From: an uncultured Planctomycetales bacterium
Lineage (GTDB): Bacteria; Omnitrophota; Gorgyraeia; Zapsychrales; JAHFFX01
Length of the DNA: 64,000 bases
Assembly: GCA_964464475.1 (NCBI GenBank)
Contig: CAYXGG010000005.1
Coordinates: forward strand, 33,143 to 97,142
Reading direction: 5' to 3'
In this document: positions 2,265 to 31,341 of the stretch, in pieces
Numbering within the stretch: position 1 is the first letter of the stretch
Layout: every line of letters starts with the position of its first letter
The notes under the pieces: model-generated
The model's input: only the letters and a program-made list of their open reading frames with translations
The model's database searches: none
What the model was told of the DNA's origin: nothing
Program-made: the position numbers and the translations under genes

Positions 2265-2507
2265 ATGTACATTGTGTATATTCTAATCAGTCAAAAAGAT
2301 CCGCAGCGATATTATATCGGATTTACTCAGAACCTTAATCAAAGAGTTATCGATCATAATTTAAGGAAATCGTGGTATTCAAAGCGTTATTCTCCTTGGA
2401 AATTAAATAGCTGGGTTGTTTTCGAGAATCATTCTAAAGCGCTTGAGTTCGAAAAGTATTTAAAAAGTGGTTCTGGATTCGCCTTTCTTAAAAAAAGACT
2501 AATCTGA
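2265..2507 (+). CDS. GIY-YIG nuclease family protein (UPF0213/YhbQ-like)
   Basis: Translation is MYIVYILISQKDPQRYYIGFTQNLNQRVIDHN, which matches the GIY-YIG core (YIVY...YYIG...R...H/N). A GGGGGAA RBS sits before the ATG at 2265. The ORF frame opens at 2205. Confidence 0.65.
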   Translation: MYIVYILISQKDPQRYYIGFTQNLNQRVIDHNLRKSWYSKRYSPWKLNSWVVFENHSKALEFEKYLKSGSGFAFLKKRLI

Positions 2508-13819: not shown

Positions 13820-16762
13820 TCATTGATGAAAATCAATAGTGGAGAAAATTTGAATACGGGTTTGCGCGTCCTTCCAGCAATCGTTGGGCAGCTTAGCTTT
13901 TTCGCTACACAACCGAGATAGAAAAGTTTCTTTATCCGGGATTTTAGACCAAACACTCGGTAAAAATATTCCTCGGTTTTTTCCTTTGCTGACAATAACG
14001 CCATGCCGGCGCGGTTGAATGATGGCCACATCAGAAATAACGCGAGGCGGGGTCAGAACGGAAATCTTGATTTTGCTTTTTTGAAATTCTTCTTTGGTTA
14101 AAGGAGGAAAGCGAGGGTCTTGGAAGGCGGATTCCCGGGCCATGACGGTTATTTCTTGCCAGAGGCTGCGGGTGGGGGTGGTGCTCCCTCGGCATCCGCG
14201 CAGACGACCTTCTAATTCAATCGTGACAAAAGCGCTGGCCGGCAGGTTTAAATAAGCGCTATGAGACAATGCGGCTGGGTCCAGCGGTTGATTGTCGAAT
14301 TGTTCGGTAATGGATTGGGCGGCTTGCTTAAGGAGCATTTGTTGTAATTCCGGATCATGCAGATAGCTTACGGGTTCGGGGCTCGGCGCGTCCTCTTTGA
14401 GGAAAGCGAGGGCCGCGTAGCCAACAACGCGGTTAATGTCTCCGGATGGGGCGTCTCCGGAGTTCGCGTAAGCCAGCGGGGTGACGTTAGTCGCTCCCAG
14501 TAGTTTGGCCGCGATAATTCCTGTTTGGACCGCGCCTTGGCCGCAAAGCGGGGTTTTAAGTTTATTCGCAAATTGTTTTTTTAAGAACGTGACGGTTTGA
14601 TTGACCAGACCTGCATCCATTTGTTGAATGGCGGATAGGGTGATGGGATCAATGCGCAATGCGGAGGCTTGATCCGGATAGTGAGCTAGGTCTGTTGAGA
14701 TAATAATGAGCGCGTTGTGCTTCTTGGCGACTTGGGCGATGGATTCCGCCATGAGCCGGCAAGTTTTAACATCGTCGGTACTGATCAGTAGTGGAACAAT
14801 TTTGAAATTGCTGAAACGGCGTTGCAGAAAAGGGAGTTGGGCTTCTAGCGAATGTTCTTGTTGGTGAGGCAGTGCTGAATCAACGAAAAGGGGGTTGCTG
14901 GTCAACAGTTCCTGGACGACGTCTTCGTTAACTGGGACTTTTCCTAAAGGGGTTTCAAAAAAACCCTTGGCCCAAAGCGCGCCGCCTTTAACGGGTACGC
15001 GATGAGCGGGTCCAATGAGGATAAAGGTGAGCGTGTCATTGTTCAGTTGGTGATAGCCATTGGCTGCTACTCCTCCTGAATATTGGTAAGCCGCGTGGGG
15101 AACCAGCAGCGCGACGATACTTCCGGGGAGCGTTTTTGAGGTCGACGCGTTGAGCAGTTGATCGACGGTGGAAGAAAGCGTTGCGGGGTCTCCGGGATAA
15201 AATTTATCAGCCACGGCGGCCGCTCGGATCCCGCCGCTGGGCACGATGGCTTTTGAGCTTGCAGAAGAATTGGGCTGAGAGGTTTTTTGTTTATGAGTCT
15301 TAGTGTTCTTGACGCAGGAATGTTTTAGCATTACGCGCTTGGTGTATTCCGCGACTTGTCCAGGCGGGGGGGTTTTCTTGGCCATAAAAATTAATTCCAG
15401 CGATTGCAGTCGCTGAGGTCCGGAATGGGTCGCATTCCAAGTGCGGCACAAATACTCTCCGTAATAGGGCCAGTAGTTTTTGTTTTTTCCGTAAGTATGG
15501 TTAAACAGGTAACGTCGCCAACGTTCGCTGGGGAACATCTGAGATGCGGATGGCTTAGTCCAGTCTAATTTCTTTCCGTCGCGGAATAAATCAACGGTGT
15601 TTCCATCGGCCAATTTGCCGGGAACCAGGAACCAGCCATTCGTCATGGCTGGCGGCGCGAACATGCGCCACGCCTGATTGATGTGTAAAAGATCGCAAAT
15701 GTTTTTTAATGGAGCCGGCATGCGATAGGTTTTTTGGGTAATTCGTTCGTAATTATAAAGCAGTACGCAGACCAGTGTCAGCGCCGCGGTCAAATTGGCC
15801 GCGGGGGAAGCGTGAATAGTCATGAACTTTCTGGGTAGACGTTCATAAATATGGCTGCCGGTTATGGCTGTGGTCACACGATCCCAGAGTTTAAGGCCCC
15901 CTATTTTGTCCCAGAATTCTTTGGGTAGAAAGAGAAGCAGGGCGGTGCTGCTAACCCAGGGAAACAACATTAAATGCAGGCAAAGATAAAAGCCCAAGTG
16001 CATCAATAGGAATCCAGCCACCAAAGGCGTCCGAATGTAGGCAGTTGCCCAGGGTAAAAAGAGAAGAATCGGCGCGATTAATTCAAACCAAAGCGTGGCG
16101 TGAGTGATAAAAGACAGCAAGTCAGGAAATTGTAAAAGCGTTAGCGCGAAATTTTTGGCGTAATTATCAATATTAAGTGCGTAATAAACCGCCGTGCCGT
16201 CTTGCCACATGGGCAGAGGCCACTTGTGAAGGGCGGCCATGAAATAGCCAACGGCGTTTTGAATCAACATGGCCGCCGTTCCGACGCTGAATATTTGTAT
16301 CGGAATTTCGTTTTTGTTTAAAGCGCGACTGCTATCAACAGAGAATTTGGCGCCCAACGGCAAAAATAGGCTCCAAAAAAGTAAGAGACGAAAATAATCG
16401 TCTCCGCCGCCCATAATCATCGGATTGCGACGGTGTAATGAAATCAGCAAGAGGTAGGAGAAGAAGGTCATCCAGCGAGTTTGGTACCCAAACATCAAAC
16501 CTAGCGCGCACAGTGCCTGCAAGCCCAGCAGTACGTATTGAACTTGCGGTGTTCCGTTCAACAGGTGAATTGATAGGGCCCAGGGACTGGGAGGTTGTTG
16601 AATGACAGCCATGCGGGGTAAGAGTCCTTCATCAGAGAAGTAAAGCGATACGTCCGGTAGATAATTAATCACATCGATTAAAATAATGAGTCCGATGCCG
16701 ATTCTAAAAATAGCTAGCGCGCGCGTATCAATGCCGAATAAATTTCTGAGTTTATTCATCAA
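13820..16762 (-). CDS. Tri-domain fusion. An N-terminal HTTM domain (vitamin-K-dependent gamma-carboxylase-like, with a VKGC-like C-terminal soluble region) is followed by a Memo-like domain (AmmeMemoRadiSam system protein B) and an AMMECR1 domain (AmmeMemoRadiSam system protein A).
   Basis: HTTM: FRIGIGLIILIDVINYLPDVSLYFSD...HRRNPMIMGGGDDYFRLLLFW. Memo: ALLVPHAAYQYSGGVAANGY, FILIGPAHR, QEHSLEAQLPFL, IISTDLAHYP, LCGQGAVQ, VVGYAALAF. AMMECR1: EGRLRGCRGS...QDPRFPPLTKEEF...HGVIVSKGKNRGIFLPSVW. 980 aa. Confidence 0.8.
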   Translation of the reverse strand: MMNKLRNLFGIDTRALAIFRIGIGLIILIDVINYLPDVSLYFSDEGLLPRMAVIQQPPSPWALSIHLLNGTPQVQYVLLGLQALCALGLMFGYQTRWMTFFSYLLLISLHRRNPMIMGGGDDYFRLLLFWSLFLPLGAKFSVDSSRALNKNEIPIQIFSVGTAAMLIQNAVGYFMAALHKWPLPMWQDGTAVYYALNIDNYAKNFALTLLQFPDLLSFITHATLWFELIAPILLFLPWATAYIRTPLVAGFLLMHLGFYLCLHLMLFPWVSSTALLLFLPKEFWDKIGGLKLWDRVTTAITGSHIYERLPRKFMTIHASPAANLTAALTLVCVLLYNYERITQKTYRMPAPLKNICDLLHINQAWRMFAPPAMTNGWFLVPGKLADGNTVDLFRDGKKLDWTKPSASQMFPSERWRRYLFNHTYGKNKNYWPYYGEYLCRTWNATHSGPQRLQSLELIFMAKKTPPPGQVAEYTKRVMLKHSCVKNTKTHKQKTSQPNSSASSKAIVPSGGIRAAAVADKFYPGDPATLSSTVDQLLNASTSKTLPGSIVALLVPHAAYQYSGGVAANGYHQLNNDTLTFILIGPAHRVPVKGGALWAKGFFETPLGKVPVNEDVVQELLTSNPLFVDSALPHQQEHSLEAQLPFLQRRFSNFKIVPLLISTDDVKTCRLMAESIAQVAKKHNALIIISTDLAHYPDQASALRIDPITLSAIQQMDAGLVNQTVTFLKKQFANKLKTPLCGQGAVQTGIIAAKLLGATNVTPLAYANSGDAPSGDINRVVGYAALAFLKEDAPSPEPVSYLHDPELQQMLLKQAAQSITEQFDNQPLDPAALSHSAYLNLPASAFVTIELEGRLRGCRGSTTPTRSLWQEITVMARESAFQDPRFPPLTKEEFQKSKIKISVLTPPRVISDVAIIQPRRHGVIVSKGKNRGIFLPSVWSKIPDKETFLSRLCSEKAKLPNDCWKDAQTRIQIFSTIDFHQ

Positions 16763-22712: not shown

Positions 22713-22924
22713 AGAATTTAAGTTTTGTCCCTGTGGCCCGGCTGCCCGTCTCACCGATGGCGAGCCGAGGCGGACCGTTAAGTAGGCTCAACGGCTCCGA
22801 TGTTTGCATGTTAATTTAAAGGTAGTCGGAGTCCCGACTACCACAATATTTTTAGAAGACGTCGGGCATAGAGCGCGGGAACTTTACTCTAAGCAGATGT
22901 TCTCAGAGGCCTACTAAAAATTAT

Positions 22925-23010
22925 GCCCCCGTAGCCTGCCTGACGGAAGTCAGGCTCAACAGATAGAGCACGTGAGCCTTTCTCTAGGCATGGTGCTCTT
23001 AGAGGTTTCT
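22925..23010 (+). pseudogene. Degenerate tRNA-like sequence (pseudo-tRNA-Arg) with a 20-nt hairpin inserted in the D-arm region
   Basis: GCCCCCGTAGC-[ctgcctgacggaagtcaggc]-TCAACAGATAGAGCAC parallels the 5' half of the adjacent tRNA-Arg (GTCCCCGTAGCTCAACGGATAGAGTAC). The 3' half cannot form an anticodon or T arm. Confidence 0.5.
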
Positions 23011-23040
23011 TGAAATAAATTTTTTTGAAAATACATTTAA

Positions 23041-23112
23041 GTCCCCGTAGCTCAACGGATAGAGTACCAGCCTCCGGAGCTGGTGGTACAGGTTCGATTC
23101 CTGTCGGGGACG
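23041..23112 (+). tRNA. tRNA-Arg (anticodon CCG)
   Basis: Acceptor GTCCCCG/CGGGGAC. Anticodon stem CCAGC/GCTGG with loop CTCCGGA gives anticodon CCG. T-arm ACAGG-TTCGATT-CCTGT. Discriminator G. Confidence 0.8.
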
Positions 23113-23273
23113 TATATAAGAACCTCCAAGAGTACCAAAATAAAGAAATAGGCTCACGCCTCCGGAGCTTGGGGTGTAAGCATAGGTTCGGCCTGGCTCT
23201 CCAAAATTAAACTATTGGAAATAGCCAGGGCAGTCCTCATTGTATCTCGCTGGTCTTTTGTTTTTGGAAAATG

Positions 23274-23295
23274 GGGACGATTCCTGTCGGGGGCG
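23274..23295 (+). repeat. Partial direct duplicate of the tRNA-Arg 3' end ('ggggacgattcctgtcgggggcg')
   Basis: 17 of 22 nt match tRNA-Arg 23089-23112. A copy of the anticodon arm ('gcctccggagc') also occurs at 23158-23168. Confidence 0.55.
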
Positions 23296-23523
23296 TAAAT
23301 TTAATGAAGGATGAGGACGATTTTCCAGAATGACGTATTAGTTGGCCCTGTGAATTATTCATCAGGGCCTTATTTACGGTTAGATAGCTAGCGAATTTCT
23401 TTATACGCTAAAGTGATTGTTATTCTTAGAGTTTAGGTCGAGCTTAAAAAAAGTGAACACTAGGGATAGTGGTTATCCACAATTGCTGCACAAGATGTGG
23501 ATAAATTTGTGAAAGGAGCGACG

Positions 23524-29049: not shown

Positions 29050-29115
29050 TTGTAAACCCCTGGTGGGTGAGATATACTTTCGTTAAACGTTTTTATGATC
29101 GATCGGAGGATTGGT

Positions 29116-29322
29116 ATGTATACTGTCAAAGTCTCACCCAAATATCAAGTTGTCATCCCGCTAGGGATACGAAAGACCCACAAGGTAGTTCCGGGAGAGA
29201 AATTTCAAGTGTTGCCTTATGAAGGACGGATCGAGTTGGTGCCCGTACGTGATATTAAAAAAATGCGAGGATTTCTTAAGGGTATTGATACCGAAGTGGC
29301 CCGCGATAAAGATCGGTCATGA
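29116..29322 (+). CDS. vapB: AbrB/MazE-family type II antitoxin (VapB-like)
   Basis: MYTVKVSPKYQVVIPLGIRKTHKVVPGEKFQV is a swapped-hairpin AbrB-type fold. Overlaps the downstream PIN gene by 4 nt. Confidence 0.65.
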   Translation: MYTVKVSPKYQVVIPLGIRKTHKVVPGEKFQVLPYEGRIELVPVRDIKKMRGFLKGIDTEVARDKDRS

Positions 29323-29690
29323 ATTTAGTCGACTCTTCAGGCTGGTTGGAGTATTTTGCCGATGGTCCCAAGGCTAAATATTTTCAATCACCGATCCATG
29401 ATACTCGCCGTTTAATTGTTCCAACCATTAGCTTATATGAAGTGTTTAAGAAAGTTTTATTGGAATTTGGAGAAGATAAAGCTTTGCAAGCTATTGCTTT
29501 GATGGAGAAGGCGAAGGTGATTGATTTGGATCTAGAGTTATCTTTAAAAGCGGCTAAATTAAGTCATCAATTAAAATTACCAATGGCGGACAGTATTATC
29601 TTAGCAACGGCCAGAATGAATGATGCTATGCTTTGGACCAAGGATGCTGATTTTAAAGGGATGCTGAATGTTAGGTATTTGGGTGATTAA
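29319..29690 (+). CDS. vapC: PIN-domain toxin VapC
   Basis: LVDSSGWLEYF has the N-terminal D of the PIN fold. Conserved acidic residues ...TKDADF. 123 aa. Confidence 0.7.
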   Translation: MNLVDSSGWLEYFADGPKAKYFQSPIHDTRRLIVPTISLYEVFKKVLLEFGEDKALQAIALMEKAKVIDLDLELSLKAAKLSHQLKLPMADSIILATARMNDAMLWTKDADFKGMLNVRYLGD

Positions 29691-29709: not shown

Positions 29710-30411
29710 GTGAGATATATGAATAAGCTTATCGTCGCGTTGGATGTCGAATCTGGTGAAGAAGCCAAGCGGTTGGTAAAATTGTTAGCGCCGGAGGTGG
29801 AAGTTTTCAAAATCGGCTCACAAATTTTTACGGCGTTGGGGCCGGAAATCGTTCGTTATGTTGAAAATTTAGGAAAGAAAGTTTTTTTAGATCTGAAATT
29901 TCACGATATACCAAATACCGTTGCCAACGCGGTGACCGCGGCGGTGGAGATGAGCTCGGGTGGTCTGTTGATGTATACGATGCACACGGTGGGGGGTGCA
30001 CAGATGTTAAGTCAAGCCGTGGCCGCGGGGAAAAAACGCGCCCAACAAAGAGGTTTTACGTCTCCATTGGCCCTGGGGATTACCGTCTTGACAAGTGAGG
30101 CCGCCACCGATAACATATCCGCTCTTGTGATGGAGCGGGCTAAGCTTGGCTTAGAAGCGGGCTGCGATGGGGTTGTTTGCTCGGCTGAAGAAGTGGGGAG
30201 TCTAAAGAAAAAATTTGGCAACCGATTGAAATTAGTGACACCCGGCATTCGTCCGGCTGGTGAGGCTGCCGGTGATCAAAAACGTACCGCAACCCCGGCG
30301 CAGGCTTTAAAAAATGGCAGCGATTACTTAGTTGTGGGGAGACCCATCGTTAAGGCCGCCGATCCTTTAGAAGCGACAAGAAAAATTTTGGAAGAGATCC
30401 GTTCTTTGTGA
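29710..30411 (+). CDS. pyrF: Orotidine-5'-phosphate decarboxylase
   Basis: LIVALDV. DLKFHDIPNT (catalytic Lys). LVVGRPI. Start may be the Met at 29719. Confidence 0.85.
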   Translation: MRYMNKLIVALDVESGEEAKRLVKLLAPEVEVFKIGSQIFTALGPEIVRYVENLGKKVFLDLKFHDIPNTVANAVTAAVEMSSGGLLMYTMHTVGGAQMLSQAVAAGKKRAQQRGFTSPLALGITVLTSEAATDNISALVMERAKLGLEAGCDGVVCSAEEVGSLKKKFGNRLKLVTPGIRPAGEAAGDQKRTATPAQALKNGSDYLVVGRPIVKAADPLEATRKILEEIRSL

Positions 30412-30415
30412 ATTT

Positions 30416-30523
30416 GGGCGGTTAGCTCAGTTGGCTCCGACGTTTTCTAGATTAGTGTAAAGGAGGTCGGAGTCCCGCCTACATTTTGAATATTTAGGAA
30501 TGGCGGGAGAGCACTAAGATTCT
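30416..30523 (+). pseudogene. Pseudo-tRNA. A tRNA 5' half (GGGCGGTTAGCTCAGTTGG...GAGCAC) is interrupted by a roughly 70-nt double-hairpin module.
   Basis: The D-arm sequence is interrupted after AGTTGG by 'ctccgacgttttctagattagtgtaaaggaggtcggag' plus 'tcccgcctacattttgaatatttaggaatggcggga'. No anticodon or T arm follows. Confidence 0.55.
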
Positions 30524-30597
30524 GGACGAATAGCTCAGTTGGTTAGAGCACTTGATTTACATTCAAGGGGTCGTAGGTTCAACTCCTACTTCGTCCA
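30524..30597 (+). tRNA. tRNA-Val (anticodon TAC)
   Basis: Acceptor GGACGAA/TTCGTCC. D-arm GCTC-AGTTGGTTA-GAGC. Anticodon stem CTTGA/TCAAG with loop TTTACAT gives anticodon UAC. T-arm GTAGG-TTCAACT-CCTAC. Discriminator A. Confidence 0.8.
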
Positions 30598-30705
30598 TAA
30601 ATTATTGTTAGTTCAACTGGGGGTCAGAGGTTCGTCCCAACCTTTCCTTAAAATAATATGAGGAAGGTGGGACGTCCTCTATTGCCCATTTAAATTTTTT
30701 GATGC

Positions 30706-30960
30706 GAATAGCTCAGTTGGCTCCGACGCTTTCTAGATTAGTGTAAAGGAGGTCGGAGTCCCGCCTACATCTTAAAATATTAGGGATTGGCGGGAGAGCA
30801 CTTGATTTACATTCAAGGGGTCGTAGGTTCGCCCCAACTCTCCTTAAATTGTTAAGAAATTCTGGAAGAAGTTGGGGCAGTCCCTGTTTTATTCTGGAAT
30901 TTATTGAAAGAAAACAGGGACGACTCCTACTTCGTCCATTAAAATTTAGGTTTAAGAATT
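30706..30960 (+). pseudogene. Mosaic pseudo-tRNA-Val carrying a roughly 70-nt D-loop insert and a roughly 90-nt T-loop insert
   Basis: Contains exact copies of tRNA-Val segments: GAGCACTTGATTTACATTCAAGGGGTCGTAGGTTC, and ACTCCTACTTCGTCCA at 30942-30957. The first is separated by the same double-hairpin module seen at 30437-30507. The second is separated by a new two-hairpin insert (ccccaac...gttgggg, then cagtccctgtttt...aaaacagggacg). Positions 1-2 of the acceptor stem cannot pair. Confidence 0.55.
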
Positions 30961-30978
30961 AAGAGTAAAGAATTAAGA

Positions 30979-31341
30979 ATGGATGAACCGAATTACAGAA
31001 AGCTTATTGTTTGGCAAAAAGCACATCAAAACGCGCTTCTTATTATTAAATTGTTGGACGAAACTTCTGTTAAGTATTCTAGAATTATTAGTCAATGCAT
31101 TAGTTCAGCAACTTCAATCGGAGCCAATATTGCAGAAGGAAATTCAGCATCCACAATCAAGGGGAAGAAGAGATATTTTGAAATTGCCATTAATTCGGGT
31201 TACGAGTTTGATAATTGGTTGCAAATTTTGAAAGATTCTGATAGTATTTGTCCCAATAAATTTCCACTTGCTGAAGTTGAAATGCGAAATATTGAAGTTA
31301 TCAAGATGTTAAGTAAATTGATAATGGGTCTTAAATCTTAG
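30979..31341 (+). CDS. Four-helix-bundle protein (TIGR02436 family; rRNA-intervening-sequence / Avd-like)
   Basis: WQKAHQNALLIIKLLDETS...ATSIGANIAEGNSASTIKGKKRYFEIAINSGYEFDNWLQI matches the IVS-encoded and DGR accessory (Avd) four-helix-bundle family pattern. Confidence 0.55.
   Translation: MDEPNYRKLIVWQKAHQNALLIIKLLDETSVKYSRIISQCISSATSIGANIAEGNSASTIKGKKRYFEIAINSGYEFDNWLQILKDSDSICPNKFPLAEVEMRNIEVIKMLSKLIMGLKS

Follow-up and report, generated by a model that had tools for sequence, protein, structure and literature searches.

The 64,000-nt stretch analyzed here (the window; contig CAYXGG010000005.1, assembly GCA_964464475.1, of an uncultured bacterium) contains, around its tRNA-Val and tRNA-Arg genes, tRNA-like debris in which a structured palindromic repeat, hereafter the module, interrupts the D-loop. 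We consider it probable that the debris at both loci represents decayed forms, devoid of the open reading frame (ORF), of a selfish cassette composed of a GIY-YIG nuclease gene and the palindromic module. As proposed, the cassette would be a composite element nested in tRNA genes of ultra-small bacteria, namely of Omnitrophota and of the Candidate Phyla Radiation (CPR/Patescibacteria), regenerating the tRNA that it interrupts; in order, it would comprise the promoter-proximal 5' part of the tRNA, the module, a short tRNA stub, a GIY-YIG ORF of ~90 aa, and the regenerated intact tRNA. The host is taken as bacterial because the best named relatives of the window PyrF protein belong to Candidatus Omnitrophica/Omnitrophota (56-59% identity; nearest non-self match 62%).

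The Val array, which spans 520 nt as a whole, has pyrF as its upstream neighbor (stop codon ending at 30411) and contains, in addition to the intact tRNA-Val(TAC) gene (30524-30597; acceptor GGACGAA/TTCGTCC; 75.1 bits with the Rfam tRNA model), two tRNA-like units termed here pseudo-tRNA X and unit 3. All features of the Val and Arg loci described below lie on the plus strand. The intact gene is the sole tRNA found in the region by ARAGORN and Rfam, and no ORF of at least 40 aa was found across the array. The D-loop module noticed in the original prediction proved real: CTCCGACG(T/C)TTTCTAGATTAGTGTAAAGGAGGTCGGAGTCCCGCC is present exactly twice in the locus (30435-30479 and 30721-30765), with none expected on the basis of 100 shuffles, and the full copies of 73 nt each (copy 1, 30435-30507; copy 2, 30721-30793) are about 93-95% identical. 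Both are bounded by ..GCTCAGTTGG and GAGCAC, which corresponds to D-loop position 19/20, after G19, and both fold as two hairpins each (-26.3 and about -21 to -24 kcal/mol), those of copy 1 being CTCCGAC..GTCGGAG and TCCCGCC..GGCGGGA. Two covariance models were used, one built from the two Val modules (R1) and a broader one (R2), with E-values that are rough for both; copy 1 scored 101.7 bits with R1 and 71.8 bits with R2, and copy 2 scored 105.3 and 76.8 bits, respectively.

Pseudo-tRNA X starts at 30416-30434 with GGGCGGT, TA, the D-stem strand GCTC, and the D-loop AGTTGG (tRNA positions 1-19, by direct reading). Module copy 1 is followed at 30508-30522 by a stub, (A)GAGC A CT, comprising the D-stem 3' strand and the start of the anticodon stem, and then by 7 nt of unrelated leader; these limits come from the alignment to unit 3, in which homology stops after GAGCACT. 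The first unit had been regarded as a 5' piece only, but its 3' part lies beyond tRNA-Val, at 30620-30688, with the variable loop GGGGTC, the T-stem AGAGG/CCTCT, and the acceptor 3' strand ATTGCCC plus A, laid out as GGGGTC AGAGG TTC[40-nt hairpin]GT CCTCT ATTGCCC A. The hairpin in the T-loop occupies 30634-30673 (z = -5.9). ATTGCCC forms 7/7 pairs, two of them G-U, with GGGCGGT (30416-30422), and folding 30416-30692 to minimum energy gives the same stem, 30416-30422 with 30681-30687. Since the two parts of X pair at the acceptor, the genuine tRNA-Val is enclosed by a pseudo-tRNA split in two. An anticodon arm is missing from X, homology to unit 3 resuming at the anticodon-stem 3' strand, and joining its halves in silico yielded arbitrary anticodons.

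Unit 3 begins with tRNA-Val homology from tRNA position 4 (CGAATAGCTCAGTTGG; 30702-30720, with 30705-30720 being 100% identical to 30527-30542), and because the identity starts only there, it never had an intact acceptor stem (positions 1-3). Behind module copy 2, the unit continues at 30794-30830 with the D-stem 3' strand, the anticodon arm (TAC), the variable loop, the T-stem 5' strand, and TTC, 100% identical to tRNA-Val. The anticodon arm, variable loop, and T-stem form a run of 36 nt common to both at 100% (30795-30830 and 30545-30580). A T-loop insert of 92 nt follows (30831-30922; -38 kcal/mol, z = -6.2), composed of hairpin A (CCCCAAC..GTTGGGG, 30831-30878) and hairpin B (GTCCCTG..CAGGGAC, 30880-30921). 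The unit ends at 30923-30938 with ACT, the T-stem strand CCTAC, the acceptor TTCGTCC, and A, which repeat the 3' end of tRNA-Val without a difference; the exact match covers the final 17 nt of that tRNA. The original prediction was therefore right about the anticodon and T-arm sequence of tRNA-Val split by a two-hairpin insert and about the exact 3'-end duplicate, and the folding that it had called for gave two hairpins in each D-loop module and the strongly negative z-scores of both T-loop inserts. Its statement that the acceptor stems do not pair needs correction: in unit 3, 5/7 pairs form, with 1-72 and 2-71 mismatched, and in X all seven pairs form. X and unit 3 are pseudogenes, that is, non-functional tRNA copies, and the locus is best explained, with fair probability, as one working tRNA-Val gene amid the remains of earlier copies of that gene.

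That the inserts are introns, or that the units are split tRNA genes yielding functional tRNAs, is extremely unlikely. The insert positions (D-loop 19/20 and T-loop 56/57) match the known sites of archaeal non-canonical introns (20/21 and 56/57), and ARAGORN names unit 3 tRNA-Val(TAC) once both inserts are deleted in silico. However, unit 3 lacks tRNA positions 1-3 and two of its seven acceptor pairs fail, X lacks an anticodon arm, the host is bacterial, and the intron and relaxed-score modes of ARAGORN detected nothing beyond tRNA-Val in 30380-30980. No Rfam intron family matched in 30300-31100 at E <= 10, the long hairpins giving chance microRNA-like matches only. Group I/II self-splicing introns were rejected, with no covariance-model match at the gathering threshold or at E <= 10 and inserts of only 40-92 nt. 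A bulge-helix-bulge (BHB) motif was likewise not found at the insert junctions by inspection or folding, as the module ends are fully paired in 7-bp stems (CUCCGAC/GUCGGAG, UCCCGAC/GUCGGGA) without staggered 3-nt bulges; a BHB reading of the CGAC/GUCG 4-mers was dropped as a loose resemblance only. Most module-bearing copies elsewhere end after tRNA positions 19-52, and in about 10 protein genes the module leaves the frame open without stops, which is needless for a spliced intron.

Uniqueness of the module to the Val locus, named beforehand as the outcome that would speak against a repeat element, did not hold, as the covariance models identified a third, diverged copy at 22795-22867 (R1 32.8 bits, R2 52.7 bits); a weak match at 16249-16305 was rejected as not being a module. 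The third copy resides in the Arg locus (22725-23375) in a D-loop context (GCTCAACGG, module, ATAGAGC), ~175 nt upstream of tRNA-Arg(CCG), within unit P (22785-22880), which consists of the D-arm fragment GGCTCAACGG, the module, and ATAGAGCG. Compared with the Val copies, C7 is replaced by U (U.G in hairpin 1) and CCCGCC/GGCGGG by CCCGAC/GUCGGG (hairpin 2), with pairing kept. The same locus contains an outer pseudo-tRNA, Q, built like X around an intact gene. Its 5' part (22925-22978) reads GCCCCCG TA GC, a 20-nt hairpin, TC AACAGATA GAGC A CGTGAGCC, and its 3' part (23151-23295) comprises GGCTCACG, an anticodon-arm relic, the T-stem ATAGG/CCTGT, and the acceptor CGGGGGC. The acceptor is 7/7 paired (22925-22931 with 23288-23294) and encloses the real tRNA-Arg(CCG) at 23041-23112. 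The 20-nt hairpin in the D-stem of Q has a GGAA loop (22936-22955) and, with its stem CCTGAC/GTCAGG, looks like a further diverged relative of the module. The T-loop insert of Q, 90 nt long with two hairpins (23190-23279), shares with that of unit 3 the layout TTCG, hairpin A, C, hairpin B (AGTCC..GGGAC), GAYT. In unit 3, the insert has the two-hairpin architecture of the D-loop module and gives a weak R2 match (18.9 bits, E = 0.006), and the T-loop inserts are probably diverged members of the same element family, with CCCCAAC/GTTGGGG in place of CTCCGAC/GTCGGAG. An imperfect inverted repeat of ~45 bp surrounds tRNA-Arg (22971-23017 and 23117-23158), the leader/trailer duplex having -47.7 kcal/mol vs -23.8 +/- 4.1 in shuffles; no comparable inverted repeat was found at the Val locus. 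A terminator-like hairpin lies at ~23343-23372 in the Arg locus.

Outside the window, the module belongs to a wider family. One scan of metagenome contigs, for which the pattern was taken from bases conserved in the three window copies (GGCTCCGAYG, a gap of 16-34 nt, GTCGGAGTCCCG), gave 30 loci, about 26 of them with the full two-hairpin architecture beyond the bases specified by the pattern; four or five loci (L015, L018 = L024, L019, L035) are apparent chance matches. In total, 3 modules were identified in the window and about 34 elsewhere. The family consensus is CTCCGACG, a variable hairpin, GTCGGAG-T-CCCGAC, a second variable hairpin, and CGTCGGGA. Among the metagenome modules, the basal stems are invariant and the apical hairpins vary freely, with G+C ranging from 40 to 73%. 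In an alignment fitted to the model, some rows of which come from the reverse strand, 94.6% of the paired cells can pair vs 84.2% in shuffles and 59% or less in slid controls, and both-side changes occur at 17 pairs (10.6 expected; reached by 0/500 shuffles). All 27 curated modules fold (27/27; mean z = -5.3). A scan of genome contigs with AGGAGGTCGGAGTCCCGCC returned just 3 chance matches in unrelated taxa, a scan of viral contigs for the module returned no match, and a scan for T-arms with hairpin inserts, noisy in GC-rich loci, recovered the three window cases and nothing new of note.

The module nearly equals its own reverse complement, and in some copies its two variable parts can pair together. 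The most fitting description is a palindromic unit, YYCCGAC..GTCGGRR, present twice in tandem, and the module so formed has inverted ends of 7-8 bp (CTCCGACG ... CGTCGGGA); these terminal inverted repeats, CTCCGACG / CGTCGGGA, are perfect in L046 (TCCGACG/CGTCGGA). At least four tandem hairpin units with the same basal stem occur in L038 (2059-2206), so the basic repeat is a single hairpin unit able to form arrays. Resemblances to integron attC-like sites, DNA-uptake sequences, and tRNA mimics of the transfer-messenger RNA (tmRNA) or Y-RNA type were considered and dropped as loose.

In 16 metagenome loci, the module interrupts the 5' part of sequences resembling tRNA-Val, -Arg, -Ala, -Phe, or -Thr, usually after G18/G19 of the D-loop. 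The module-bearing copies end after position 19, about 27, 38, or 52 and, being cut off, are pseudogenes; in six loci (L021, L022, L032, L033, L013, L028), an intact copy of the same tRNA is present 10-110 nt downstream. Locus L021 has the same order as the window, with the pyrF 3' end, a Val 5' fragment with the module, and an intact tRNA-Val, and its PyrF is roughly 55-60% identical to that of the window (estimated by eye). The acceptor 5' strand of X is identical to that of the intact tRNA-Val in L021, and because the L021 acceptor, GGGCGGT/ACCGCCC, matches X and not the working GGACGAA, X is best read as an older resident tRNA-Val allele. The nearest named relatives by PyrF synteny (L001-L005) have no tRNA after pyrF and no modules. 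In L030 and L037, the module-bearing tRNA-Ala 5' fragments are 100% identical, the downstream intact tRNA-Ala(CGC) genes are only 73% identical, and the L030 fragment differs from its own intact tRNA, which suggests either joint movement of fragment and cassette or replacement of the tRNA.

Duplicated tRNA ends beside a tRNA gene are a classical signature of integration and excision, and the original prediction had offered relics of integrative-element recombination at tRNA-Val as one explanation. Tracing the fragments to att relics left by integrase-mediated integration and excision of an island or prophage would account for the 17-nt exact repeat of the tRNA-Val 3' end, yet it is very improbable, since neither an integrase nor an island lies between the repeats, the array is so short, the duplicate that recurs across loci is the promoter-proximal tRNA 5' part rather than the 3' part, and the associated gene encodes a GIY-YIG nuclease. 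What survives of that idea is the attribution of the tRNA debris to mobile-element activity; neither an integrase nor an att-type 3' repeat plays a part in it.

The sole recurrent partner gene of the module is the GIY-YIG nuclease gene. In five loci of the pattern scan (L029, L030, L037, L023, L025), a small GIY-YIG ORF (PF01541, with weak SegE_GIY-YIG and T5orf172 matches besides) adjoins the module-bearing copy, and in four of them (L029, L030, L037, L023) it lies between the fragment and the intact tRNA. A sample independent of the module was obtained from homologs of the L037 ORF, the named ones belonging to Omnitrophica WOR_2, Candidatus Omnitrophica, and Candidatus Microgenomates; eight distinct loci were retrieved by exact protein identity. 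In 8/8 of these, an R2 match (20-52 bits) lies within about 120 nt of the ORF, compared with a background of about 3 matches per 107 kb. A tRNA soon follows the ORF in 6/8 (Lys x3, Ile, His, Ala): an intact tRNA overlaps the ORF stop or starts a few nt from it in L044, L046, L047, L048, and L049 (Lys-CTT twice, Lys-TTT, Ile, His), and tRNA-Ala-CGC lies about 65 nt after the stop in L039. In L042, a tRNA-Ala lies 1.4 kb downstream, and L041 has no intact tRNA. The ORF is beside or within a conserved gene in 13/13 GIY-YIG loci, and the recurrent order is tRNA (positions 1-18/19), module, a TAGAGC.. stub to about position 27, 12-35 nt, an ORF of 86-98 aa, and an intact tRNA. Two GIY-YIG ORFs are present in L044, and in L049 the last 46 nt of the ORF together with tRNA positions 1-19 are repeated. 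L041 contains, at 1380-2060, three consecutive tRNA-Ala(CGC)-like copies with the module in each D-loop, one before the ORF and two after it; the last is full length with a broken acceptor stem, and as no intact tRNA was found across the 3.3 kb, either loss of the isoacceptor or a gene for it elsewhere is possible.

The third window copy, the roughly 26 metagenome copies, and the association in every GIY-YIG-sampled locus bear out the earlier preference for a structured repeat element over an intron or split tRNA. The modules could instead be independent elements resembling repetitive extragenic palindromes (REPs), Rickettsia palindromic elements (RPEs), or miniature inverted-repeat transposable elements (MITEs), moved by another enzyme and merely accumulating with GIY-YIG genes in dispensable tRNA debris. 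Such an origin fits the modules of protein genes and of the window Val and Arg loci, which have no GIY-YIG gene close by, and REPs/RPEs that have CGTC ends, lack a known transposase, and lie in frame within genes are on record (PMC3733652). We nevertheless regard it as improbable, because the module lies so close to the ORF, in a repeated order, in all eight sampled loci and in the five GIY-YIG loci of the pattern scan, against so low a background.

Long ORFs contain the module in about 10 loci; both orientations occur, and the frame always stays open. The hosts include GyrB (L009, 499-554), DnaG (L017, 2382-2441, and L027, 4190-4250; the same site in two organisms, in reverse orientation), a ComM-like protein with two copies (L011, 617-676 and 935-994), an oxidoreductase (L010 = L034), a 4073-aa protein (L016, 10765-10833), and the products of L014 and L036. 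The encoded peptide, APT..VGVPT..VG, arises because CCG-ACx encodes P-T and GTC-GGx encodes V-G; it adds about 20 residues and is an insertion when compared with the solved structures of GyrB and DnaG. The GyrB host of L009 is Candidatus Berkelbacteria (CPR), and the module is absent from 19 close Berkelbacteria GyrB homologs with 62-79% identity; a possible relic was noticed in a close GyrB homolog, P0131 (APRSSKSEVGPS). Given these in-frame copies, splicing is excluded as a general fate of the module, which, occurring in both orientations inside ORFs with the frame kept, is a DNA-level element.

On the proposed account, the Val and Arg loci would have lost the nuclease gene, as in the usual life cycle of homing endonucleases, and would be decayed stages like L021 and L022. 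We infer the loss at these two loci, since the only GIY-YIG ORF in the window (2265-2507) sits elsewhere, without a D-type module. Unit 3 would be a truncated duplicate of the current tRNA-Val gene (positions 4-76) that acquired the module by recombination or gene conversion via the conserved D-arm flanks. Spread of this kind fits the locus because module copies 1 and 2 are near-identical in different tRNA bodies, with acceptor strands that differ between the two host units, and because the shared tract is bounded by the D-arm. The GIY-YIG protein may make the initiating cut in the tRNA gene, the module, or a cruciform, after which repair would copy the cassette; solo modules may have been moved in trans. 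The module may serve the cassette by breaking the repeat, by disarming the fold of the decoy tRNA, or by restraining translation of the nuclease. A broader possibility, which we put forward only tentatively and as rather less probable than not, is that the GIY-YIG nuclease and the module form an undescribed mobile element found in at least two phyla (Omnitrophota and CPR), which invades tRNA genes without an intron, supplies a replacement 5' part, and leaves a marked decoy, the nuclease also acting in trans to move ORF-less modules into further tRNA copies and, with the frame kept, into essential protein genes. In the searchable literature, of which coverage is incomplete, no description of the module or of a tRNA-nested GIY-YIG cassette was found.

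Several observations weigh against the cassette explanation. A regenerated intact tRNA would restore a tRNA-internal target of the nuclease, which is awkward for simple homing. The insertion position is not fixed, being mostly 18/19 and also 10/11, 15/16, 13/14 (reversed), 2/3, and 3/4. No consistent target-site duplication was found in the module loci compared. The copy number is low (3 in the 64-kb window and none in 43 kb of related loci), unlike that of classical REPs, and the Val and Arg loci of the window contain no GIY-YIG ORF. The share of tRNA contexts and the target-site and orientation statistics are biased, because the scan pattern fixed a GG left flank and one orientation. In orthologous Ala loci, the basal stems are 97-100% conserved and the intact tRNAs 72-73% identical, and the fragment with its module has been kept between lineages whose PyrF proteins are only roughly 55-60% identical. 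Such stem conservation and persistence of the fragment suggest constraint in situ and fit a cis-acting function as well.

The corresponding rival, in which the tRNA 5' fragment with its module would function as a cis-acting RNA leader and be kept at the RNA level by selection on the host or the cassette, is rather unlikely; it is retained as the main competitor because the stem conservation, the synteny with L021 of the pyrF-fragment-module-tRNA-Val arrangement, and a modest sense-strand bias fit a view of the fragments as junk poorly. The leader could act in processing, stability, or translational control, or could prevent the decoy 5' half and the real 3' half from forming an RNase P substrate. 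Sigma-70-like promoters with 10-11/12 matches lie just upstream of the fragment in six loci (L028, L032, L033, L030, L023, L025), and given this position, the fragment with its module starts the transcript there; furthermore, 12-35 nt separate the module end from the GIY-YIG ATG, and GGAG/GGGAG is present in the module 3' arm. Within tRNA contexts, the sense strand folds better in 12/16 cases, with 28 G-U pairs in the sense vs 10 in the antisense strand. This asymmetry is modest, however, and the orientation of the sample is biased by the search pattern. Moreover, a leader role is impossible for modules lying in either orientation inside protein genes, the position in the tRNA varies, the apical parts are unconstrained, and no promoter-like site precedes the window copies.

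Among known systems, the proposed cassette most resembles free-standing GIY-YIG homing endonuclease genes such as the phage T4 Seg genes. In T4, SegB acts in the tRNA gene region. As in these systems, a small PF01541 ORF is located at conserved genes without an intron, and ORF-containing and ORF-less versions, both of which exist at tRNA loci, are consistent with a cycle of invasion, degeneration, and loss; no strictly allelic empty tRNA site was recovered. In contrast to T4 Seg, the ORFs found here have only 86-98 aa and consist of a catalytic domain without an obvious DNA-binding domain, their nuclease activity being predicted; the cassette duplicates the tRNA 5' part and regenerates the tRNA, the displaced copy always bearing the module, and the hosts are cellular Omnitrophota and CPR genomes rather than phages. 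By analogy only, 23S rRNA intervening sequences (IVSs) with the IVS protein (PF05635) are also hairpin insertions in a structured RNA gene, sometimes with a small ORF. RNase III excises IVSs, leaving an rRNA that functions in fragments, whereas the tRNA copies with the module are truncated or defective and the function falls to a separate intact tRNA. Archaeal non-canonical introns and split or permuted tRNAs with BHB motifs share the insert sites 19/20 and 56/57 and the placement of one tRNA between the halves of another, but here the host is bacterial, removal of the inserts gives no functional tRNA, and the DNA palindrome also occurs in ORFs and in both orientations. The terminal inverted repeats of the module recall MITEs, but no transposase was found. 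REPs and RPEs are likewise short palindromic units, often paired and repeated, with in-frame intragenic copies that are translated (here in GyrB and DnaG); REP/RPE elements are known in frame in replication and repair genes, and the CGTC class has no known transposase of its own (PMC3733652). The module shares the CGTC outer ends of that class (CGTCGGGA; left end in reverse complement CGTCGGAG). CGTC-tagged REPs have stems of 8-9 bp starting with A/T pairs, loops of 4-5 nt, and a CCA tail (PMC3733652), and the module departs from this published architecture in its YYCCGAC/GTCGGRR stem, long variable apical hairpin, and different tail, as well as in its low copy number and strong tie to tRNA genes and the GIY-YIG ORF. 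On the nuclease side, the nearest note in the literature concerns GIY-YIG genes exchanged from Patescibacteria.

Other features of the window were noted in passing. The GIY-YIG ORF at 2265-2507 (PF01541, E = 8e-15) lies just 3' of tRNA-Glu and has a 45-nt direct repeat on either side (2099-2143 and 2517-2561; 96% identity). Each repeat combines what looks like the 3' end of a tRNA (CTTCGCCCCA) with a hairpin behind it, CCCCACAAC..GTTGGGGG, the basal stem of which resembles hairpin A of the T-loop inserts; a long hairpin is also present at 2100-2176, and no D-type module was found beside this ORF. An ORF for a 23S rRNA intervening-sequence protein (IVP; PF05635, four-helix bundle) occupies 30979-31341, 40 nt after unit 3 and 26 nt before tRNA-Asp, a small ORF abutting a tRNA in a layout like that of the GIY-YIG cassettes. 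Exact-identity look-ups with the window IVP and PyrF proteins returned no record. Directly upstream of pyrF, a MazE/AbrB-like antitoxin and a PIN-domain VapC-like toxin are encoded at 29095-29690. PIN toxins often cut tRNAs; no link of this pair to the tRNA debris was found. The four window tRNAs are all on the plus strand, and GC skew is positive in every 2-kb bin of 1-64000, with a monotonically rising cumulative skew, so the whole window lies on one replichore arm.

The cassette explanation ties together pseudo-tRNA debris, orphan small GIY-YIG genes beside tRNAs, and in-frame palindromic inserts in GyrB and DnaG, and it explains tRNA-like sequences that are missed by tRNA finders and read through by gene callers in ultra-small bacteria. 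If the mobile-element reading put forward tentatively above is true, it would supply the missing enzyme for CGTC-ended REP/RPE-like palindromic elements. If the link between nuclease and module is functional, the two would represent a compact selfish system tolerated inside essential tRNA genes and a possible source of structure- or sequence-specific nucleases. Such a system may cross phyla, which bears on genome annotation and on horizontal transfer in groundwater communities.

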